This document shows positions 13,130-23,804 of a stretch of DNA of 30,262 nucleotides, piece by piece; position 1 is the stretch's first letter, and each line of letters starts with the position of its first letter. The notes below the pieces were generated by a model. The model searched no databases and was not told the origin of the DNA. It saw only the letters and a list, made by a program, of their open reading frames with translations. Source of the DNA: Campylobacteraceae bacterium (GTDB lineage: Bacteria > Campylobacterota > Campylobacteria > Campylobacterales > Sulfurovaceae); contig JALVVQ010000257.1 in NCBI GenBank assembly GCA_027023325.1, positions 1-30,262 on the forward strand, given 5' to 3'. Both the position numbers and the translations under genes were made by a program.

Positions 13130-14929
13130 TTATTGAATCGTCTTAAGCTGCTTTGTAAACTGCTCAGGCGGAATAAATCCTGTGAAAAACTTATCACTCA
13201 ATGCCTTGCCTTTGCTATCAAAAAAGAGAATATTGGGCGCGCCAAAAAGACCATATTTTTTCAAAATAGCTTGCTCTTCAGGGGTATTTTTAGTGATGTC
13301 GATCTGGATGAACTTGAATCGCTCTAGCTCTTTTTTGACAGTGGGATCAGGGAAGGTGATATTTTCCAGTTCGGTACAGGCAGCACATCCCTCTTTGCCA
13401 ATATCGACAACCACTGGTTTGCCTGCCTTGTTCGCCTCTGCAACTTCTGTGAGGAGTCTTTCGACTGAGTAGCCTTGTCTGACGGATCGATCTTCTATCA
13501 CCTCTGTGGTGGCAACACCGCTTTTGGTGCCTGTAAATCTGTCTAGTGGGTGCAGTAAGGAGTGTGAGCCACTGACGGCACCCATGAAGAGCATGGCACC
13601 ATAAAGAAGCATCACCAATCCAGAAAGGGTAATCAATTTGGAAAGACCACTGCGTTTGTCACTGTTGTCAAAGACACCGATATACACTGCAGAGCCCATC
13701 AGTAGCAGAGATGCCAACAGCAGCGTAAGGCTAGGAGGCAATAGCCTTTCGACCATATAAAGTGCCATCATAAGCATGAGTACACCAAAGATCTGTGAGA
13801 TACGCATCATCCAGCCGCCGGGCTTGGGCATGAATTTGCCTGCACCCAGACCTACCAACAGTAGTGGTACTCCCATGCCTATACTCATTACAAAGAGTGC
13901 CAGCCCACCAAGGAATGCATCCCCAGTCTGAGAGATAAAGAGGATAGCCCCACCCAGCGGTGGCGCGACACAGGGGCCTACAATCAGCGCAGAGAGCACT
14001 CCCATGATAGCAGTGCCGAGGATACCTTTGCCCTGGGCATTGTCACTGGCAGAGCTGAGTTTGGATTGCCATGAGGCAGGCAGGCCGATCTCGAAAAAGC
14101 CGAAGAGGGAAAATGCCAGAGCTACGAACATGGCGGAAAAGAGGATAATGACCCAGGGCTTTGCCATGGCTGCCTGAATATCTGCGCCCACGAGACCAGC
14201 AATGACGCCCACCACCGTATAAGCCAAAGCCATGGCAAGCACATAGATAAGGGAGGTGAAAAAGGCTTTTCCGGGACTGGGCTTCTCCTCTTTGCCTGCC
14301 TGGGAAATAATGATGGAAGAAAGAATGGGGATCATAGGGAAGATGCAGGGTGTCAATGCCAAAAAGAGCCCAAAGACAAAGAAAAGCATAAGGATAAAGA
14401 AGGGATTTTCTTTGACCAGTACATCAGCGATCTTGCCAGTGTTTCCCTCTTGTGTCAGCCTGGATATCTTGGCAAAAAAGCTTTCAGGTTCTCCTTCATA
14501 GGCAAATGTGAACTTTCTCACCTGCGGCTGGTAGCAGATGCCACCATCAGAACAGCCAGTCATTTCGATAGCGAGGGTGTAGTCTTTGTTGACCTTGCTC
14601 TCTATCTCCTTGAGGGGAATGTCTACGGAGATATCATGGTAAATATCAAACTCCCCGTGTTTTTCAGTGGGTGGAAGCGTAGGTTTGAGTTCGGTTTGTA
14701 TGGGGTCAGTAATTTTGAAATGCAGGTCTTTGCCATAGATATAGATCTTGTCGCCCAGTGTGATCTTTGTTTTGATCTTGTCGCCCTCTTTGACGGCGCT
14801 GGCTTTGAAAGCCTCAGCAGGGGAGAGAAAACTTTGCTTGGGAAGCTTGAGCCCTCCGAATCCTTCCGCATGGCTTATGGTAGTAGCTAAAAGTATCGCA
14901 CACAGTAAAAAAATCTTCTTGAATGTCAT
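13130..14929 (-). CDS. dsbD: Thiol:disulfide interchange protein DsbD
   Basis: Alpha domain CSDGGICY, TM domain LTPCIFPMIPI and VGPCVAPPL, gamma domain GCAACTELE. Confidence 0.93.
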   Translation of the reverse strand: MTFKKIFLLCAILLATTISHAEGFGGLKLPKQSFLSPAEAFKASAVKEGDKIKTKITLGDKIYIYGKDLHFKITDPIQTELKPTLPPTEKHGEFDIYHDISVDIPLKEIESKVNKDYTLAIEMTGCSDGGICYQPQVRKFTFAYEGEPESFFAKISRLTQEGNTGKIADVLVKENPFFILMLFFVFGLFLALTPCIFPMIPILSSIIISQAGKEEKPSPGKAFFTSLIYVLAMALAYTVVGVIAGLVGADIQAAMAKPWVIILFSAMFVALAFSLFGFFEIGLPASWQSKLSSASDNAQGKGILGTAIMGVLSALIVGPCVAPPLGGAILFISQTGDAFLGGLALFVMSIGMGVPLLLVGLGAGKFMPKPGGWMMRISQIFGVLMLMMALYMVERLLPPSLTLLLASLLLMGSAVYIGVFDNSDKRSGLSKLITLSGLVMLLYGAMLFMGAVSGSHSLLHPLDRFTGTKSGVATTEVIEDRSVRQGYSVERLLTEVAEANKAGKPVVVDIGKEGCAACTELENITFPDPTVKKELERFKFIQIDITKNTPEEQAILKKYGLFGAPNILFFDSKGKALSDKFFTGFIPPEQFTKQLKTIQ

Positions 14930-15001
14930 CTTTGTACTCTCTTTTAAAGGTTGTTAGTGTAAAACTATATCCAAGAATGATAAACAATAACAGTGTAGTA
15001 A

Positions 15002-16501
15002 ATGTGCAAAGGGCAAGAGATGAATCAAAAAGAGATATCGTGGTATGCATGGGGCACAGATCCCTTTGATAAGGCAAAACAGGAAGAGAAGCCACTGTTG
15101 CTTTTTATTGGTTACAGGGGATGTTACTGGTGTGAGCAGATGGAGCGGGAATCTTTCGTTAATGATATAACGGTCTCTTTGGTAGAGGAGCATTGTATCG
15201 TGGTGCGTGTCGATAGCCATGAACGACCAGATATTGGTAGGCATTTTCACCGTGTATTTACACAGATGACTGGACGCGAAGCAAACTATCCGTTGGTGAT
15301 TTTCCTCTCGTCTGACAAGGTACCGCTGTATGCTGCAAGCTATCTGCCTGAGTCGAGCAGGGACGGAATGATGGGGCTAGGGGAGACTGTGACGCTGGTT
15401 GCGCAAAAATACCAGCAGCAAAGGGCACTGCTTCTGGAGAAGGGTCAAGAGATTCTAGATCTGCTACAGCCATCAAAGCAAAGTATCCAAGCAACCACAC
15501 TGCATGGTGGTATCGTCTCTGTCATTTCTGAGCAGATCAAAGTGCTTCATGACAGTGAGCATGGAGGGTTTGGAGAGAAGCCAAAATTTCCCAGACACTC
15601 TCTGTTGATGCTGGCACTGGATAGTTACAAGGAGACCAAAGATCCTGAAATTGCTGCCTTGCTTCGGCATACTTTGGATGCACTGACCAACAAGGGATTG
15701 CATGACAGAGAGGAAGGTGGATTTCATCGTTACTGTATGGACAAGGCATGGCAGGAGCCGCAGAGAGGGAAAATGCTCTATGACAATGCCTTGATGAGTG
15801 AGACACTGCTATGGGCATCGACACGGCTAGAAGAAGAACAATACGCCGCCATAGCACTAGAGACAGTGGAATTTATACGAAATAAACTGATGCTGGATGG
15901 GTGTTTCTGTGCTTTTTATGACGAAGGTGTGGTGAAGGATGAGAGAATAGTTGTCTCATGGAATGCTATGGCGATCAAAGCCTTTTTAATGGCTGGAAAG
16001 TGGGACAGGGTCTACAGACAAATGGGCATTGCTTCACTCTCCAAGTTGCTGGAGTTTGGGATGAAAGGAGGGGTACTGTACCACAGCTTTATCCGAGGAG
16101 AAGCACCCGCGACAGAGGCATTTTTGGAGGATTATGCCTATGTGGCTGAGGTACTGATCGTGGCATATGAAGAGACCGGAGAGGAGCACTATTTGGTCAA
16201 GGCTTCAGAGCTGATCAACGAGGCACTCAAGCAGTTTTTTAATCAAGGACAATGGTGCTATGCCAACAAAGAGGTGGTATTGCCTGCAGATACGGTCGAC
16301 GGAGACTATCCTGCTGCACTCTCTGTGATGGGTGCTGTCCTGCAAAAGGCTACGAAGCTTATCGATCCGGCGTATGAGAAGTTTTTGCAGCGTACGCTGG
16401 AGATACACTCCTATGAATTAATGAGACAGCCTGTCTCTATGCCTGCATTGGCAAGGACAGCGATGCAGAGCATACGCCCACAAGAGAAAATACAAATGTA
16501 A
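15002..16501 (+). CDS. Thioredoxin-domain protein of the DUF255/YyaL (SSP411-like) family, shortened; start may be the ATG at 15020
   Basis: WYAWG..., CYWCEQMERESF, VDSHERPDI, GGFGEKPKFP, GGFHRYC and KMLYDNAL, plus FLEDYAY. Confidence 0.75.
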   Translation: MCKGQEMNQKEISWYAWGTDPFDKAKQEEKPLLLFIGYRGCYWCEQMERESFVNDITVSLVEEHCIVVRVDSHERPDIGRHFHRVFTQMTGREANYPLVIFLSSDKVPLYAASYLPESSRDGMMGLGETVTLVAQKYQQQRALLLEKGQEILDLLQPSKQSIQATTLHGGIVSVISEQIKVLHDSEHGGFGEKPKFPRHSLLMLALDSYKETKDPEIAALLRHTLDALTNKGLHDREEGGFHRYCMDKAWQEPQRGKMLYDNALMSETLLWASTRLEEEQYAAIALETVEFIRNKLMLDGCFCAFYDEGVVKDERIVVSWNAMAIKAFLMAGKWDRVYRQMGIASLSKLLEFGMKGGVLYHSFIRGEAPATEAFLEDYAYVAEVLIVAYEETGEEHYLVKASELINEALKQFFNQGQWCYANKEVVLPADTVDGDYPAALSVMGAVLQKATKLIDPAYEKFLQRTLEIHSYELMRQPVSMPALARTAMQSIRPQEKIQM

Positions 16502-16509
16502 AGTAACAC

Positions 16510-16538
16510 TTGACACTTTATGATAAAAATGCTATACT
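16510..16538 (+). promoter_or_regulatory. Sigma70 promoter TTGACA-N17-TATACT (TG-extended) with a TTTAT-G-ATAAA dyad in the spacer
   Basis: -35 at 16510-16515, -10 at 16533-16538 and dyad at 16517-16527. AAGGAG RBS follows. Confidence 0.7.
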
Positions 16539-16568
16539 TTCATACTTTCCATACAAAAGGAGCATGGC

Positions 16569-17231
16569 ATGGCATTGAAAATGAAAGCGCTTTCCGCGCA
16601 GAGCGGAGAGAACAAATCAACCATACTGTTTTATATCAAAGAGGGATTGCTTCCAGCACCCTCCAAGCCCAAACCCAATGTGCATCTCTATGATGAAAGC
16701 TGCGTAGAGATCATAAAGTTCATCAAATACCTCCAGCATCATTTTGCCTATACCATCGCAGATATCAAACATATCTTTGAGCAGACGCCTTTGGATCTGG
16801 ATGGGAGTTTTGAGATGATGGTGAGCGCACTTGAGATCGCCACCGTAGGAAAAAATCCTGTATGGTATACCAAAGAAGCCTTTCTTAAAGAGAGTGGGCT
16901 GGAGGAGGAGACCTTGGATACCTATATCGATAGAGGGTATCTCTTCCAAAGAAAACAGGGGTTCAGTTCTGCGGAGCTTGAGATGGTAGGCATCTTGCAA
17001 AATCTTAGTACGCTTGGACTTGAGAGCGCACTGATAGACCAGTATGTGCAGAGTGCCAAGCAGATTGCTATGCTGGAGAGTGAGGCAGGTGCTAGGATGT
17101 TTGATACGATTGAAAAGGAGTCAACGGCACATTATGAGATGCTTTTTGACATGGTACTCAAGCTCAAGCCCTATATCTACAATATGCATACTGTTTCACA
17201 GTATTATCATGACAAAAGGAGCCAATCATGA
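16569..17231 (+). CDS. MerR family transcriptional regulator
   Basis: N-terminal MerR HTH (MKALSAQSGENKSTILFYIKEGLLP). A second HTH-like segment is present (FLKESGLEEETLDTYIDRGYL). Confidence 0.8.
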   Translation: MALKMKALSAQSGENKSTILFYIKEGLLPAPSKPKPNVHLYDESCVEIIKFIKYLQHHFAYTIADIKHIFEQTPLDLDGSFEMMVSALEIATVGKNPVWYTKEAFLKESGLEEETLDTYIDRGYLFQRKQGFSSAELEMVGILQNLSTLGLESALIDQYVQSAKQIAMLESEAGARMFDTIEKESTAHYEMLFDMVLKLKPYIYNMHTVSQYYHDKRSQS

Positions 17232-20200
17232 AAACACTCTTCCGCATCGCAGGGTTTACCCCTTATATATTGATCATCTTTCTCAATGCAATGACAGATC
17301 TGGGACACAAAATTATCCTACAAAATACGATCTTTAAGGCCTATGACGGCTCTGAGCTGATCGTGCTGACTGCGATAGTCAATGCCTTGATTCTGTTGCC
17401 GTTTATCTTTCTCTTTTCACCCTCTGGCTATATCGCTGACAAGTATCCCAAAACCAAAGTAATCGAGTATGCAGCACTGCTGGCGATAGGTATCACGGTA
17501 CTGATACTGATCAGTTACTACATGGGCTGGTTCTGGCTCGCCTTTGGGTTGACTTTTGTGCTGGCGGCGCAGAGTGCGGTCTATTCACCTGCCAAGTATG
17601 GGCTCATCAAAGAGATGGTAGGCAATGACAACCTTGCCTCTGCCAACGCACTGGTACAGGCAGTCACCATCATCTCTATACTTGCAGGTGCGGTGATCTA
17701 CTCACTGCTCTTTGAGAAGTTTTTGGGAGACAGAACGATACTCCCTCATGAGATACTACCGTATGTGGCACCGCTTGGCTACCTGCTTATCGCTGGAAGT
17801 ATCGTAGAGTACCTGCTTGCAAGACGGCTGGTGGGTGCGAAACAAAGCGAAGACAGTACCGTCAAATTTGAAGCAAAAAAGTATAAAAACCTTGGCTATC
17901 TCAAAGAGAATCTCACACTCCTCAAAAGCAATGAAACCGTATGGCTCAGTATCATCGGGCTGAGTATCTTCTGGGGGATCTCTCAGGTGGTTGTGGCTAT
18001 TTTCGGAGAGTATCTCAAGGGAGAGCTTGGTGTCACCGATACGGTGGTAGCACAGGGACTTTTAGCACTGTCTGGTGTGGGTATTATCGTAGGGTCTTTG
18101 TTGGCTGGAAGATTTAGCCGTCGCTATATCGAGACAGGGATCATTCCTCTAGGGGCTCTGGGTGTGTCACTCTCAGTCTATCTACTTCCTTCGCTTCACA
18201 GTCAGCTTGCTCTGGGTGTGGATCTTTTTGCTTTTGGACTCTTCGCAGGGCTCTTTATCGTACCACTCAATGCGCTGATTCAGTTTGCCACGCCGACACA
18301 TATCCTAGGGAAAATGCTTGCTGGCAACAACTTTGTCCAGAGTGTATCGATGTTTCTGTTTCTGGTGGTTACGGCACTGTTTGGCTACTTTGAGATATCA
18401 AGCAGGACACTGTTTTATCTCGTGGCGACCATTGCCTTTGTTGGGATGCTCTATACCTTTGTCAAGCTCCCGCAGTCGCTGGTGCGCTATCTTGTCAAGA
18501 TGCTCTTTCGCTTTCGATACCGTATCGAGGTCAAAGGACTCGAGCATATCAAAGCAGAGGGCAGAGGGGTACTACTGCTGGGTAATCATGTCTCGTTTCT
18601 CGATTGGGCGATGTTACAAATTGCCTACCCAAAGCAGATCCGCTTTGTAATGGACAGAACCTACTATGAAAAGTGGTATCTGAAGCCATTTTTTAATTTC
18701 TTTGGTGTGATCCCTATCTCTACCAGAGGAAGTAAAACAGCATTGGCAAAGGTGAGCGAAGCCTTGGAGAATGGTGATACCGTAGCACTCTTTCCAGAGG
18801 GGCACCTCTCTAGAAATGGTCATTTAGGCGAGTTCAAGAAAGGCTTTCAGGTCGCAGCCAAAGAGGTGGAGAATGCAGTGATCGTGCCTTTTTATCTCAG
18901 AGGACTCTGGGAGGATAACTTCTCTCATGCATCTGGGAAAATGAAGCGAAATAGCGCGAAGGATATCACGGTCAGTTTTGGTGAGATGATGGATATCTAT
19001 AGTACCCCTGTGGAGGTCAAAAAATCAGTCTTTGATCTCTCTATCTCTTCCTGGCAGGTGTACACAAAGGAACTACCCAGTATCCAAAAAGCATGGCTAC
19101 AGAGCGCCAAGGAATCAGGAGGCAAGCTCTGCATGGCAGATTCGACTGGGCTAGAACTCTCCAACCATAAGTTTGTCACAGGGACACTGCTTATCGCAAA
19201 CAGGCTGAAAAAGCCTCTCGCGCATACGCAAAATGTTGGACTTCTCTTGCCCACCTCAGTAGGGGGATCCATGGGAAACATGGCACTGCTCACACTGGGA
19301 AAAACGGTGGTCAATCTCAACTACTCCAGTGGTACACAGAGTTTGTTGCATGCGGTGGATATCGCACAGATAGAGACTGTCATTGCCTCCAAGCAGTTTG
19401 TGACCAGACTGAAGGCCAAAGGCTTCGATCTTTCAGAGGTGCTGGTGCAGGTGGAGGTAATCTATCTGGAGGATATCAAGGAACAGATTGGCAAGTTAGC
19501 ATCTCTGCGGATGCTGCTTAGTGTGAAGCTACTTCCGCTAGATATCCTGAGTCGCATCTATCTCAAGGAGCGCAGCCCAGAGGATACTGCAGCGATACTT
19601 TTCTCCAGTGGAAGCGAAGGCACACCCAAGGGGATTGAGCTGACCCATCGCAATATCATGGGTAACATCAAGCAGACCACCACACTGATCAATCCGACAG
19701 ATGAGGATGTGATGCTGGGCACCTTGCCGATCTTTCACTCCTTTGGCTTGACAGTGACGACCCTGCTGCCACTGGTCGAGGGGATTCCTGTGGCGTGCCA
19801 TCCTGATCCGACAGATGGCTTTGGGATAGGCAAGATGGCAGCCAAGTATGAGGCGACCATGCTCTTTGCGACGGCGACCTTCTTCCGACTCTATACCCGC
19901 AACCGCAAGCTTCATCCACTCATGTTCTCACACTTGAGGATGGTGATCGCAGGTGCCGAGAAGCTGCCTGCTGAGATCAGAGAGGCGTTTCGGGCGAAGT
20001 TTGGCAAAGAGATCTACGAGGGGTATGGTGCGACAGAGACCACACCTGTGGCTGGGGTCAATATCCCTGATGTCCTGATGATGGATGACTGGAAGGTGCA
20101 AAAGGGCAACAAGGCAGGCACGATAGGGCTGCCTCTGCCAGGAAGCAGCTTCCGTATCGTAGATCCTGAGAGCTTCGAAGAGCTGCCTGTAGGGGAGGAT

Positions 20201-20680
20201 GGCATGATCCTGATCGGCGGCACCCAGATCATGAAAGGTTACATCGGTGACCCTGACAAGACCGCTGCGGTGATCAGAGAGATTGATGGCATCCGCTGGT
20301 ATGTGACGGGTGACAAGGGGCATCTGGATGAGGATGGCTTCTTGACGATTGTGGATCGCTATAGCCGTTTTGCCAAAGTGGCTGGAGAGATGGTGAGTCT
20401 GGGGCTGGTAGAGAGTGAGATCGTCAAGGTGCTTTCAGAGGCAGACCAGATCGCTGTCGCTGCCCTGCCGGACGAGAAGAAGGGAGAGAAGTTGGTACTG
20501 CTACTGGAGGGAGAGATGACACTAGAGACACTCAAAGCAGAGATCAAAACGCTAGAGATGAATCCCCTCTTTGTACCCAGCGAATACTACAAGGTGGAGG
20601 CATTGCCTAAACTAGGCACAGGAAAAGCAGATTTCAAGGGTGCCAAAAAATTAGCACAGGAGTTGAGTGATGGAGAATAA
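17228..20680 (+). CDS. aas: Trifunctional MFS (LplT-like) / acyl-ACP:lysophospholipid acyltransferase / acyl-ACP synthetase (Aas)
   Basis: About 12 TM helices with QSAVYSPAKYG. PlsC motifs NHVSFLD and FPEG. AMP-binding motifs FSSGSEGTPKG, YEGYGATE and TGDKG. Confidence 0.92.
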   Translation: MKTLFRIAGFTPYILIIFLNAMTDLGHKIILQNTIFKAYDGSELIVLTAIVNALILLPFIFLFSPSGYIADKYPKTKVIEYAALLAIGITVLILISYYMGWFWLAFGLTFVLAAQSAVYSPAKYGLIKEMVGNDNLASANALVQAVTIISILAGAVIYSLLFEKFLGDRTILPHEILPYVAPLGYLLIAGSIVEYLLARRLVGAKQSEDSTVKFEAKKYKNLGYLKENLTLLKSNETVWLSIIGLSIFWGISQVVVAIFGEYLKGELGVTDTVVAQGLLALSGVGIIVGSLLAGRFSRRYIETGIIPLGALGVSLSVYLLPSLHSQLALGVDLFAFGLFAGLFIVPLNALIQFATPTHILGKMLAGNNFVQSVSMFLFLVVTALFGYFEISSRTLFYLVATIAFVGMLYTFVKLPQSLVRYLVKMLFRFRYRIEVKGLEHIKAEGRGVLLLGNHVSFLDWAMLQIAYPKQIRFVMDRTYYEKWYLKPFFNFFGVIPISTRGSKTALAKVSEALENGDTVALFPEGHLSRNGHLGEFKKGFQVAAKEVENAVIVPFYLRGLWEDNFSHASGKMKRNSAKDITVSFGEMMDIYSTPVEVKKSVFDLSISSWQVYTKELPSIQKAWLQSAKESGGKLCMADSTGLELSNHKFVTGTLLIANRLKKPLAHTQNVGLLLPTSVGGSMGNMALLTLGKTVVNLNYSSGTQSLLHAVDIAQIETVIASKQFVTRLKAKGFDLSEVLVQVEVIYLEDIKEQIGKLASLRMLLSVKLLPLDILSRIYLKERSPEDTAAILFSSGSEGTPKGIELTHRNIMGNIKQTTTLINPTDEDVMLGTLPIFHSFGLTVTTLLPLVEGIPVACHPDPTDGFGIGKMAAKYEATMLFATATFFRLYTRNRKLHPLMFSHLRMVIAGAEKLPAEIREAFRAKFGKEIYEGYGATETTPVAGVNIPDVLMMDDWKVQKGNKAGTIGLPLPGSSFRIVDPESFEELPVGEDGMILIGGTQIMKGYIGDPDKTAAVIREIDGIRWYVTGDKGHLDEDGFLTIVDRYSRFAKVAGEMVSLGLVESEIVKVLSEADQIAVAALPDEKKGEKLVLLLEGEMTLETLKAEIKTLEMNPLFVPSEYYKVEALPKLGTGKADFKGAKKLAQELSDGE

Positions 20681-20984
20681 GGAAGAGACATTGGAAGAGA
20701 GAACTTATCAGGGGTCACTGCTGTCAGTAATACACTTTCTGTCTGGGATTGCTGCGGCAGCGTATTCGATATTTTTGGTTACGAACTATAACCGTAATAT
20801 GCCTTGGGGTAACCTATTGACTTTCGGTATCCTCTTCTTGTATCTGTGGGGCTTGTATGCATCTGTACCGCGCTACAAAAAAGGAAGTATGGGCACAGCA
20901 AGGGGCATCTTTCATGTGATAGGAGGATTATCTTTGGTATTTTTTCTCAATATTTTTGTCTGCATGAATAGTTCAAGATTTTAA
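20667..20984 (+). CDS. Small hypothetical membrane protein (about 3 TM)
   Basis: Overlaps aas by 14 nt with a GGAG RBS, stops 2 nt before the next ATG and has three hydrophobic stretches. Confidence 0.7.
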   Translation: MMENKEETLEERTYQGSLLSVIHFLSGIAAAAYSIFLVTNYNRNMPWGNLLTFGILFLYLWGLYASVPRYKKGSMGTARGIFHVIGGLSLVFFLNIFVCMNSSRF

Positions 20985-20986
20985 AA

Positions 20987-21670
20987 ATGGCTATTCATAT
21001 CCTCTTTGATTTGCTCTCTTATCTGGCGGCAGGTGCGTTTTCTTGGAGGTATTTCAAGGATCCAAACCCTGTGATCATAGAGGAAGATATGCGTTGGTAT
21101 TACTACACTGTGTTGGTCGTTGGGTTTGTCTTGGGCTCTGTGGGTCTGAGTATACTCAACAACTATCTCTCACTAGAGGGACAGGTGATCTTGGGAAAAT
21201 CTATACTGGGAGCACTTTTCGGTGGGATACTTTTCTCTGAGACATTTAAGTACTTTATGGGCATCAAGGGTTCTACGGGGGCATATTTTGTCCCCTCTCT
21301 GGCTATCGGTATTGCGATTGGCAGAATCGGATGCTTTTTGGCAGGGCTTGAGGATTATACCTATGGTGTGGAGACGACTCTGCCGTGGGGTGTAGACTTT
21401 GGGGATGGGGTAGTGCGGCATCCTGTGCAACTCTATGAGAGTTTGGCGATGTTTGGATTTTTTGGGTTTGCCTTGTGGCGATACAGGGTAGACAGAGCAG
21501 GATTTGGGCGCACTATGTTTTACCAGTTTGTGCTTTGGTATGCCCTGCAGAGATTTGCCTGGGAGCAACTCAAGCCCTATGAGAATATCGTGTTGGGTAT
21601 CAATCTATTTGGCTGGGTTTGCTTGGTACTGATAGGGTATGCAGTGGTTTATCTATACAGAAATAAATAA
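20987..21670 (+). CDS. Divergent prolipoprotein diacylglyceryl transferase (Lgt)-family membrane protein
   Basis: GRIGCFLAG (residues 112-120), YG..TTLPWG, HPVQLYE (145-151) and QRFAWEQLK. GKSILG stands where Lgt has GMSFHGG. Short at 227 aa. Confidence 0.8.
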   Translation: MAIHILFDLLSYLAAGAFSWRYFKDPNPVIIEEDMRWYYYTVLVVGFVLGSVGLSILNNYLSLEGQVILGKSILGALFGGILFSETFKYFMGIKGSTGAYFVPSLAIGIAIGRIGCFLAGLEDYTYGVETTLPWGVDFGDGVVRHPVQLYESLAMFGFFGFALWRYRVDRAGFGRTMFYQFVLWYALQRFAWEQLKPYENIVLGINLFGWVCLVLIGYAVVYLYRNK

Positions 21671-21681
21671 AGGAAAGTATC

Positions 21682-23088
21682 ATGGCATTTTATGCACAAC
21701 ATTATGATCTGTTTTTGACAGCGACACAGAGTTTTTGTCAACAGTGTGACAACATCAATAGATTGGTTGACACCCATGTGGTGACCAAGGACAATGAGGT
21801 ATTCCTGCGTAAATTCTGTCCCACTTGTGGGGAGTCGATGGTAAAGATTTCCACCAATTATGACTACTACAAGCAGTGCGAAGCCTACCTCAAACAGCCG
21901 GACTTGCCAGAGAAGTCCTTGACACAGGTGCTTCGTGGTTGTCCCTATGACTGCGGGGTCTGTCCGCAGCACCAAAACCATCCCTGTCTGGCACTGTTCA
22001 ATGTCACAGATGAGTGCAATATGAAGTGCAATATCTGCTACTACGCAGCAGAGCCCGGACTGGGTAACCATCGCAGTATGGAGGAGATCTCACAGATGCT
22101 CGATACCCTGCTGGAGACCGAAAGTGAGCCTGACCTTATTCAAGTCACCGGAGGAGAGCCTACGACACACCCTCAGATCATGGAGATATTGCAGTTTCTC
22201 AAAAAGTCTCCAGTCAGGCATCTCATGCTCAACACCAATGGCATCCGTATCGCAGAAGATGAGGCGTTTGTCAAGGCACTTAAGAAGCTGGGCGCTGGGT
22301 TTGAGGTCTACTTACAGTTTGACTCTCTACAGAAAGAGGTGTTACAGGATATCCGAGCCAGAGATATGCGCGAGGTGAGACGCAAGGCATTGGCAATGCT
22401 GGAGAAGCATAATGTCTCTACTACGATCGTCTCAGTCATCAAAAAAGGACTGAATGACAAAGAGATCCCGCAGATCTTGGCATTCTCCCGCAAGTACCGC
22501 TGTATTCGTGGTGTGGTATTCCAGCCTGTCCAAGAGGTGGGGCGTATCAAAGCAGAAGGGGATTTCCGTATTACGCTGAGTGAGATCAGGCAGATCGTTG
22601 TCGAAGATGAGGGAAATCCTTTCACCGCAGCAGATATGATTCCGCTTCCCTGCGACCCACACAAGATCGGTGTAGGCTATGCTGCCAAGACCATGGGTAT
22701 AGATAAAGAGGGTGCTCCCTATGCCAACCTCATGCCAGTCACCGGACAGATTCCCAAAGAGATGATTACTGAGCAGAGAGGCACGGTGGCCTTCGAGCAA
22801 GACAGAGCATTTGTCAAGACGATTGTTGAGACTGTGAGCCTTGATACGGCTATGGGAGAGAGTATTCTCAAGGATAAGATCAAGACCAAGCTCTTCTGCT
22901 GCTGGCCGAGTTTTTTGAGTCCTGCAGATATGGGATATGAGAATGTCTATCGTATCGTTATTATGGAGTTCAGCGATGTGTATAATTTCGACACGACCAA
23001 CATCAAAAGAGAGTGTAACTTTATGATAGAGCCCAATCGGGTGATACCGTTTAGTACTTACAATATGGGGCTGTCGCGCTCTCAGTAG
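21682..23088 (+). CDS. Radical SAM protein, COG1964 / MJ0619 / Tes-like architecture
   Basis: C112xxxC116xxC119, VTGGEPT and LNTNG. Extra motifs are C19xxC22...C46xxC49 and C87PYDC91GVC94PQH97. AAGGA RBS. Confidence 0.85.
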   Translation: MAFYAQHYDLFLTATQSFCQQCDNINRLVDTHVVTKDNEVFLRKFCPTCGESMVKISTNYDYYKQCEAYLKQPDLPEKSLTQVLRGCPYDCGVCPQHQNHPCLALFNVTDECNMKCNICYYAAEPGLGNHRSMEEISQMLDTLLETESEPDLIQVTGGEPTTHPQIMEILQFLKKSPVRHLMLNTNGIRIAEDEAFVKALKKLGAGFEVYLQFDSLQKEVLQDIRARDMREVRRKALAMLEKHNVSTTIVSVIKKGLNDKEIPQILAFSRKYRCIRGVVFQPVQEVGRIKAEGDFRITLSEIRQIVVEDEGNPFTAADMIPLPCDPHKIGVGYAAKTMGIDKEGAPYANLMPVTGQIPKEMITEQRGTVAFEQDRAFVKTIVETVSLDTAMGESILKDKIKTKLFCCWPSFLSPADMGYENVYRIVIMEFSDVYNFDTTNIKRECNFMIEPNRVIPFSTYNMGLSRSQ

Positions 23089-23804
23089 AGCACCCGTGCC
23101 AGATAGAGTCCCTGTGGAGGTGCCACTCCTCTACTGTGGATTGTTGTGCGTGATAGTTGCTCTTTGAGCTGGGTAAGCGTCAGCTCTTCATTGGCAACCT
23201 TGATGGCAAAATCAATCATCATTCGTACCTGTGCCCGCAGAAAACCATTGGCTTCGAAGTAGAGGTAGTGGTATCTGCCTCTTTGTATGTGGTAGGCTTT
23301 GTGTATCTGTCGGATATTGTTTTTGGTCTCAGAACCGGTTTTAAGAAAATAGCTAAAATCATGTTCTCCAACAAAGCATGTCAATGCCTCTTCGAGTTTC
23401 TCACTATTGCTCAAAGGGAGAGAAGAGACAAACTCTTTTTCAAAAAGTGTTGGCTCTGTGGACTTGATGCAGTAGCGATAGATGCGTCTTTTGGCAGAAA
23501 ATCTGGCGTGAAAGTCTTGCTCTACTATACTGATATGTTTGAAGTATACATCCTTGAGTTTGCCATTGAGATGACTTTTTAACTTATTGAGATCCTCCCA
23601 GTAGGGAGGCAGGTCAAAATGGATCACCTGCCCTGTGGCATGGACACCAGCATCGGTGCGACCCGAGCCAGTGAGAGGAGAGGTGATACCCAAGCTCTCC
23701 AATGCTTCTTCGATGGTGGTGGTGATGGTCTGCTTGGTACTGGTCTGCTTTTGAAATCCCTGAAATTGGGTACCGTTATAAGCAATGACCGCTTTGACAC
23801 GCAT
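23082..23804 (-). CDS. truA: tRNA pseudouridine(38-40) synthase
   Basis: YNGTQFQGFQ, GSGRTDAGVHA, FHARFSA, ANGFLRAQVR and APPQGLYL. Confidence 0.95.
   Translation of the reverse strand: MRVKAVIAYNGTQFQGFQKQTSTKQTITTTIEEALESLGITSPLTGSGRTDAGVHATGQVIHFDLPPYWEDLNKLKSHLNGKLKDVYFKHISIVEQDFHARFSAKRRIYRYCIKSTEPTLFEKEFVSSLPLSNSEKLEEALTCFVGEHDFSYFLKTGSETKNNIRQIHKAYHIQRGRYHYLYFEANGFLRAQVRMMIDFAIKVANEELTLTQLKEQLSRTTIHSRGVAPPQGLYLARVLY

Follow-up and report, generated by a model that had tools for sequence, protein, structure and literature searches.

A widespread three-gene module of a small cysteine protein, an Lgt paralogue and a Tes-like radical SAM enzyme, joined to aas in Sulfurovaceae

The locus and the range of the module

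The DNA analysed here, hereafter the window, is a stretch of 30,262 nucleotides (nt) from a Sulfurovaceae metagenome-assembled genome (MAG; GenBank assembly GCA_027023325.1, contig JALVVQ010000257.1), the closest named relatives of which are Sulfurovaceae and Sulfurovum MAGs. Five genes follow each other on its forward (+) strand, and these genes are two evolutionary units and probably two functional ones. The first unit (16569-20680) encodes a MerR-family regulator of 220 aa (16569-17231, +; PF13411, MerR_1, 54 bits) and a fused LplT-Aas protein of 1150 aa (17228-20680, +); the second (20670-23088) encodes a small three-helix membrane protein of 104 aa (20670-20984, +), a paralogue of Lgt with 227 aa and seven helices that is named LgtL here (20987-21670, +; PF01790, 68.8 bits), and a 468-aa enzyme of the radical S-adenosylmethionine (SAM) type with the architecture of MJ0619/Tes, or GDGT-MAS (21682-23088, +; Zn_ribbon_HMPTM and Radical_SAM domains). 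The second unit is a real and widespread three-gene module that is described in no paper found and that points to the modification of a protein or a lipid. A first-pass annotation of the window had taken all five genes for a single system. Its family labels for the five products are upheld by profile searches, and its last three genes do belong together, as their pairing and a natural fusion indicate; the MerR-Aas part, however, turned out to be a separate conserved pair.

The association of LgtL with the radical SAM enzyme was followed from both sides, in loci that are designated by L numbers below. Among 49 loci fetched from species genomes with the radical SAM enzyme as the seed, LgtL is present in 41, always on the same strand and at a distance of 2-2119 nt (11 nt in the window), and the remaining eight reach a contig end or have only ~1 kb of flank. 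With an LgtL alignment as the seed, 80 metagenome loci were fetched; the radical SAM gene lies in 63, there is no room for it in 17, and no locus has the room and lacks the gene. In loci with enough flank the pair is obligate. The two proteins also occur as a natural fusion of 733 aa (P0305), in which an LGT domain, a Zn ribbon and a radical SAM domain succeed each other and of which three members are known, each from a contig of its own. By homology with E. coli Lgt, this order would put the radical SAM part on the C-terminus of LgtL, on the cytoplasmic side. Two other fusion candidates were set aside. An apparent ICMT-LGT protein (P0259, in L074) is likely an assembly or frame artefact, as it comes from a single 2-kb contig at 1.8x coverage and has a low-complexity middle, and it is at most an ICMT-like gene adjoining an LgtL gene; a further LgtL-radical SAM fusion, suspected in L128, was left out of the count, as Pfam recognised only the radical SAM part of the ORF.

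The module ranges over Campylobacterota, Gracilibacteria/Peribacteria and a set of high-GC loci. About 60 of the 80 LgtL-seeded loci have 50-72% G+C, and their LgtL proteins are 36-54% identical to that of the window, as measured on the best tblastn match to any LgtL query. Close homologues of one high-GC radical SAM enzyme carry the names Caulobacteraceae, Phenylobacterium, Caulobacter ginsengisoli and Sphingomonadales. The genes for LgtL and the radical SAM enzyme are also adjacent in Sulfuricurvum, in an Arcobacteraceae MAG and in Gracilibacteria, where the surrounding neighbourhoods are unrelated to one another and contain no aas. The pair was found to be widespread in the kind of neighbourhood survey that the first-pass annotation had proposed; aas was met beside it only in Sulfurovaceae-type loci, and an Aas-like set of genes in one lineage of Gracilibacteria.

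Within the phylum of the window the module is sparse. A close orthologue of the radical SAM enzyme is present in only three of 301 sampled phylum genomes, one of them being the genome of the window, and in none of 12 sampled genomes of the same family. The radical SAM enzymes of Gracilibacteria/Peribacteria (L052-L061, L064, L071) come from hosts in which TGA codes for Gly, yet they share 62-69% identity with the Sulfurovaceae copy, a level that suggests a fairly recent transfer between Campylobacterota and Gracilibacteria lineages of sulfidic habitats. Gracilibacteria are commonly considered incapable of lipid synthesis of their own. Near-identical low-GC modules of the Campylobacterota type were also seen on contigs assigned to Candidatus Thiomargarita nelsonii or to a 'Pseudomonadota' MAG (L036 and L038; also L067), and those of L036 and L038 look like epibiont DNA binned with its host, or a transfer. 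Base composition shows no anomaly across the module of the window, and so gives no compositional sign of recent insertion.

Full-text literature searches for a combination of an Lgt-like protein with a radical SAM enzyme found nothing relevant, which agrees with the first-pass statement that no pathway was described for it, and papers on bacterial Tes homologues mention no Lgt partner (PMC8941075; PMC13159169; 2026 review PMC13459092). Features that are new from the window are the recurrent link of the module to aas, the neighbourhood of a split Aas in Candidatus Altimarinus that is described below, and the level of identity (62-69%) that the Gracilibacteria copies share with those of Campylobacterota.

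The two enzymes and their cysteine-bearing partners

LgtL is an additional paralogue and not the housekeeping Lgt. Its score against the Lgt equivalog model TIGR00544 is 27.6 bits and does not reach the cut-off of 118.9, and a canonical lgt (211.7 bits) lies on another contig of the genome of the window. The same holds for Gracilibacteria that bear the module, which have a canonical Lgt and two further family members; the possibility that LgtL serves them as their sole Lgt was ruled out, as the canonical protein in these genomes is also high-scoring. The Lgt fold itself, with seven transmembrane helices and the PF01790 domain, is present in LgtL. Its predicted structure (pLDDT 89.9) has a single significant match in the PDB, which is E. 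coli Lgt (5AZB, TM-score 0.64), and a profile of the LgtL family matches the same entry with an E-value of 1e-7. A search of a protein Atlas with LgtL returned only generic 'Lgt family' clusters. In Mycobacterium smegmatis, a second lgt homologue, which may or may not belong to the LgtL family, is noted in the literature as functionally unassigned (bioRxiv 2025.01.07.631728).

Compared with E. coli Lgt (5AZB/5AZC), LgtL is ~60 residues shorter and always paired with a radical SAM enzyme; it shares the seven-helix fold and the residues of the pocket, and differs at H103 and N146. In an alignment of 37 LgtL sequences, equivalents of R143, G154, H196, Y201, E202, Y235 and R239 are retained, with R143, E202 and Y235 kept in all 37 and R239 in 36, the exception being a truncated ORF of L064. 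R143 and the R239 network act catalytically in E. coli Lgt, where the diacylglycerol-phosphate part of phosphatidylglycerol sits in the pocket formed by R143, E202, Y235 and R239 (PMC4728403). On the other hand, none of the 37 sequences has H103 of the HGGL motif, the position being occupied by L, I, A or F; N146 is replaced by C or A, and E151 has no clear equivalent, an invariant Asp standing two residues earlier. Helix 1 is less certain, as MAFFT places an invariant Asp at the position of Y26 and HMMER aligns this helix differently. Substitutions of H103 (H103A/N/Q/R/Y) and of Y26 inactivate E. coli Lgt, and HGGL was proposed as the site of the lipobox peptide (Mao et al. 2016, PMC4728403). 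Since R143, E202, Y235 and R239 are retained and H103 is lost, LgtL retains the lipid pocket and appears to have an altered acceptor side.

The radical SAM enzyme is Tes-like in its architecture and, judging by score and by several residues, is not Tes. The best-scoring NCBIfam model is TrsS (NF045646; 260 bits, cut-off 490), followed by Tes (NF045702), the cut-off of which is likewise not reached (228.5 bits against 450). With the GDGT-MAS structures 7TOL/7TOM the match has an E-value of 1.5e-48 and covers both the N- and the C-terminal parts. Invariant sites of the family are Cys19/22/46/49, Cys87/91/94 with His97/100, Cys112/116/119 of the CX3CX2C motif, and Cys324/406/407/445. In comparison with the metal-site features of GDGT-MAS, as given in PMC9433317, the window enzyme shares the N-terminal metal ribbon, the CPxDCGxCPxH and CX3CX2C motifs and an equivalent of Met439, so that both the N-terminal rubredoxin-like site and the [4Fe-4S]N site (three Cys and a His) of a Tes-type enzyme are represented. 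The ribbon reads CxxC...CxxC in the window enzyme and CxxC...CxxH in GDGT-MAS, its fourth ligand being Cys rather than His; two cysteines near Met439 and the Tes-invariant Tyr459 are replaced by I, S and M. The family has its own invariant cysteines (Cys324/406/407/445), is bacterial, and comes coupled with an Lgt paralogue and with cysteine proteins. The overall architecture of TrsS is also shared, but the score stays far under the cut-off and the window gene has no selenocysteine codon. The enzyme is encoded by the only PF23545 gene in the genome of the window, and among 14 control genomes its N-terminal domain was found only in the three archaea.

The small gene more likely starts at the ATG at 20670 than at the GTG at 20667 (which would give 105 aa), because AGGAG stands 7 nt upstream of the former; with the ATG, the protein would have 104 aa and its gene would overlap aas by 11 nt. 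The product has no family match in Pfam or NCBIfam profile searches. Its AF2 model (pLDDT 84.7) has predicted helices at residues 15-39, 44-70 and 76-101. Eighteen homologues encoded 5' of LgtL in Campylobacterota-type loci are highly divergent, with a mean column identity of 27% and pairwise identities down to 10%, and Cys98 is the sole invariant residue among them, followed by a short and unconserved tail of six residues. Four positive charges precede helix 3 in the loop, and under the positive-inside rule this helix is predicted to run from inside to outside, with Cys98 at its periplasmic end. A helix that comes after a positive loop and presents a cysteine where it ends on the outer side has the geometry of an Lgt substrate with its lipobox.

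Other lineages encode analogous small membrane proteins, in which a single conserved cysteine stands beside a helix. In Gracilibacteria the partners are small membrane proteins with an xCGG motif, and in the high-GC loci one or two proteins of 76-95 aa, each with a single cysteine in a PSGLCT-like motif, are encoded directly 3' of the radical SAM gene. A further partner of ~210 aa (p211), absent from the window, is found in 19 of the 49 radical SAM-seeded loci, where in most Campylobacterota loci its gene stands between those of LgtL and the radical SAM enzyme (L012:7366-8001, L010:7336-7992 and 17 more); it has a lipoprotein signal with a lipobox ending in Gly-Cys, a C-terminal helix and a conserved YHYIF motif, and belongs to no Pfam family.

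Possible chemistry of the module

On the evidence of sequence, gene neighbourhood and predicted structure, the reading that we prefer, with a rough probability of 0.45, is that the module attaches a glycerolipid to the cysteine of the small protein, or holds it there, by means of LgtL, and that radical chemistry on the lipid tail follows. At the outer leaflet, LgtL would bind a lipid of the phosphatidylglycerol type and either transfer it to this cysteine or hold it there. The cytoplasmic radical SAM enzyme would dock on the cytoplasmic C-terminus of LgtL, in the way that the order of the fusion protein suggests, abstract a hydrogen from the acyl tail and create a new C-C or C-S bond. This would yield a dedicated, covalently lipidated membrane protein of small size, or else a lipid with a cross-link. 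The invariance of the small-protein cysteine, which the first-pass annotation had not noted, points to protein-linked as well as free-lipid chemistry. A more specific version is doubtful as a whole: LgtL would place a diacylglyceryl or related group on the cysteine at the outer leaflet, the Tes-like enzyme, docked on LgtL from the cytoplasm, would weld a tail of this lipid to a second tail, of the same lipid or of one in the inner leaflet, giving a cross-linked or membrane-spanning anchor, and in Sulfurovaceae LplT-Aas would recycle the lysolipids.

Several observations weigh against the preferred reading. LgtL may not transfer diacylglyceryl at all, because H103 is missing, as is Y26 if the MAFFT alignment is right, and both are required in E. 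coli Lgt. The cysteine is predicted on the periplasmic face and the radical SAM enzyme in the cytoplasm, so that the two would not obviously touch each other directly. The radical chemistry may not be Tes-like either, as the two cysteines of the Met439 region and Tyr459 are replaced. The wider radical SAM family is not always linked to lipids, as a paralogue that is 31-36% identical stands in a non-lipid context in another Campylobacterota family (L005:3709-12833); it has no Lgt beside it, and its neighbours are genes for a SAM methyltransferase, C_GCAxxG_C_C, AMP-binding, XdhC and MobA-like/HD proteins, which may represent a TrsS-type context. In addition, the partner proteins vary by lineage, from the three-helix protein of the window through the lipoprotein-like p211 to two-helix proteins with the cysteine deeper in a hydrophobic stretch, and in a Cardiobacteriales MAG (L046:4603-5192) two proteins resembling the small protein of the window are encoded 5' of LgtL without the invariant cysteine.

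The strongest competitor, although unlikely, is a free-lipid pathway in which LgtL captures a phosphatidylglycerol-type lipid of the outer leaflet and feeds its tail to the Tes-like enzyme, this enzyme couples or cyclises acyl tails, the product is a diabolic-acid-like, macrocyclic or membrane-spanning lipid, and the small protein is a structural or assembly subunit. The radical SAM enzyme is indeed a full-length homologue of GDGT-MAS, including the N-terminal clusters and Met439, and LgtL would suit such a role in keeping the residues of the lipid pocket while losing the motif proposed to bind the peptide. GDGT-MAS binds lipid tails and was isolated with E. coli phospholipids bound (PMC9433317), and bacterial Tes homologues were proposed as synthases of membrane-spanning lipids (Zeng et al. 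2022, PMC8941075). However, the one residue conserved in the partner proteins is a cysteine, for which a subunit with a structural role alone would have no need, and the replacement of Tyr459 and of the two Met439-region cysteines counts against Tes chemistry here as well. The proven bacterial synthase of membrane-spanning lipids, Mss of Thermotoga, likewise uses radical SAM chemistry to join fatty-acid tails, and so makes the kind of product that the first-pass annotation had envisaged, but it belongs to a different radical SAM family, no Tes homologue was found in Thermotoga, and no Lgt partner is described for it ('Lgt' has 0 occurrences in PMC13159169). The carriers of the module also include aerobic Caulobacteraceae and Sphingomonadales. 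To our knowledge, neither of these groups has been reported to make membrane-spanning lipids.

The link to aas and the meaning of the module

The LplT-Aas protein of the window is itself ordinary. It is a full-length member of the fused form of the lysophospholipid remodelling system known from E. coli lplT-aas, with 1559.6 bits against NF006386 (cut-off 1221) over residues 1-1147, and has the MFS_1, Acyltransferase and AMP-binding domains in this order; fused homologues of this kind were noted before (PMC11416262). In the first unit, lysophospholipids would be flipped inward and then re-acylated, with the MerR protein as the regulator. What is unusual is the module joined onto the 3' end of aas in Sulfurovaceae. 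A MerR homologue is encoded directly 5' of aas in five other Sulfurovaceae loci that do not carry the module (L017, L018, L019, L021, L022), and also in L015/L023 and L083; because of these five module-free loci, MerR-Aas is regarded as a separate conserved pair, common in Sulfurovaceae. The first-pass annotation had named as evidence against a single system the separation of aas and MerR from the module in related genomes, together with a transcription start or terminator at the 20680 junction; most of this was observed, namely the separation, in these five loci, in the module loci of other taxa that have no aas, and in an insertion between aas and the small gene in the closest relative.

In this genome the five genes probably form one transcript. 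As had been proposed, a promoter-like site of the sigma-70 type lies 5' of the MerR gene (16510-16538, +), with TTGACA, a 17-nt spacer and TG-n-TATACT; it agrees with the consensus at 11 of 12 positions, carries the TG of an extended -10 element and is the top-scoring match between 16300 and 23400. It is a consensus match only, in a scan that gave 15 such matches against 9.5 +/- 3.0 in shuffled sequences. AAAGGAG precedes the MerR start codon, and no inverted repeat of the MerR operator type was found around the promoter. The ORFs and junctions given by the first-pass annotation (-4, -14, +2 and +11 nt, the second being -11 with the ATG start at 20670) were recovered unchanged, and so was the 7-nt overlap of the radical SAM gene at its 3' end with the convergent truA (23082-23804, -; TIGR00071, 181 bits, cut-off 142.85), which is the downstream boundary and lies outside the system. 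A consensus scan found no terminator-like hairpin at any junction of the five genes, again as first annotated. A + strand hairpin of this type at 23261-23282, within truA and ~170 nt beyond the radical SAM stop, might end the + strand transcript. The region 5' of the promoter (13130-16501) holds a gene for a DsbD-like thiol-disulfide transporter (599 aa, -), labelled from the Pfam assignment of its homologue in L007, and a DUF255/thioredoxin-like gene (499 aa) that stops 9 nt before the -35 box; the two are also found 5' of MerR-aas in the closest relative.

Beyond the window, aas lies 5' of the module in L023, L025, L035, L037, L047, L076, L077 and L083, all of the Sulfurovaceae type, and it is absent from beside the module in all other fetched loci (>100, from other taxa). 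The radical SAM proteins encoded in aas-linked loci are not monophyletic (a single clade is rejected by the approximately unbiased test, p = 2.8e-9), and well-supported branches of the tree force at least three changes, which counts against a single ancestral insertion of the module behind aas. The 3' flanks of the aas-linked modules also differ, with truA in the window, L023 and L025, eno in L083, L076, L047 and L035, and an amidohydrolase gene in L037. The complete order of MerR, Aas, small protein, LgtL and radical SAM enzyme recurs in L083. In the closest relative, L007, the radical SAM enzyme of which is 92% identical, two Peptidase_C92 genes bracket the module, one of them (L007:6313-6948) separating aas from the small gene and the other (L007:9419-10048) standing 3' of the radical SAM gene. 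Some relatives in the Peptidase_C92 superfamily are reported to act on lipids, and the two genes could be accessories of the module or traces of an insertion. A remnant of such a gene (YaeF/YiiX type, permuted papain-like) lies at L037:2753-2842, and the window has neither gene. Other genes found between aas and the module in relatives encode an RDD protein and a membrane protein of 161 aa.

A comparable neighbourhood occurs in Candidatus Altimarinus (L064:7328-12711, genetic code 25), where genes for a PPTase, an MFS protein, a PlsC-type acyltransferase, an AMP-binding protein and a patatin-like phospholipase stand directly 3' of the module, the middle three corresponding to the domains of LplT-Aas, split and in the same order. 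Its sister L071 has only the PPTase and MFS genes, and the other 11 of 13 Gracilibacteria loci have none of these.

That all five genes constitute one lipid-remodelling pathway, with Aas as an integral supplier or repairer of acyl chains, was the original proposal, and it now appears improbable. The tight junctions, including the 11-14-nt overlap of aas with the small gene, would favour it, as would the adjacency of aas in eight fetched loci besides the window, across at least three radical SAM lineages and three kinds of downstream flank, together with the complete order in L083 and the split Aas-like set of L064. A link of aas to Lgt-type chemistry is also plausible, because LplT-Aas recycles the lyso-phosphatidylethanolamine released when Lnt N-acylates lipoproteins (PMC11416262). 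However, aas is not within reach in more than 100 module loci of other taxa, five Sulfurovaceae loci have MerR-Aas by itself, other genes intervene in relatives, and most Gracilibacteria loci have no Aas-like genes nearby. Moreover, the aas-linked loci are all of the Sulfurovaceae type, and their lack of monophyly could equally come from the exchange of cassettes at one inherited site. Overall, the pattern is compatible with a link to aas that was selected for and with cassette exchange at a site inherited behind aas, and a promoterless module would stay tied to aas in both cases alike. The Sulfurovaceae module probably uses the aas promoter, from which it would be transcribed in this genome. 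A functional link with aas is possible but weak, and a true dependence of the module on aas seems unlikely; under the preferred reading of lipid attachment followed by radical chemistry, Aas may recycle lysolipids made around the reactions of the module, which would not need it.

Far less probable than any of these is a pathway resembling those of ribosomally synthesized and post-translationally modified peptides, in which the radical SAM enzyme modifies the small protein itself, for instance by a thioether at Cys98, and LgtL serves as a scaffold or for later lipidation: the single invariant cysteine of otherwise divergent proteins, weak NCBIfam matches to AlbA- and StsB-type maturases and the four invariant C-terminal cysteines recall the well-known radical SAM enzymes with auxiliary clusters that make cysteine thioethers, but Tes and TrsS rather than SPASM peptide maturases are by far the best matches, Cys98 is predicted in the periplasm, away from the cytoplasmic enzyme, and the tail behind it is short and unconserved.

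The function of bacterial Tes homologues has never been shown (PMC8941075; bioRxiv 2024.06.25.600576), and genome surveys count them as possible makers of branched tetraethers (brGDGTs), which serve as palaeoclimate proxies. Because every homologue in the clade studied here that has enough flank travels with LgtL, the pairing with LgtL and, in the loci examined, with single-cysteine proteins argues for a different chemistry, one in which lipoprotein lipidation meets the radical coupling of lipid tails. The recurrent link to LplT-Aas gives a concrete hypothesis on the lysolipid by-products of such a pathway, and the occurrence of the module in cultured aerobes, as the names Caulobacter and Phenylobacterium indicate, makes it directly testable. 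If the reading as a protein-lipid conjugate is true, many of the 'bacterial Tes homologues' now counted as possible brGDGT makers would do another job.

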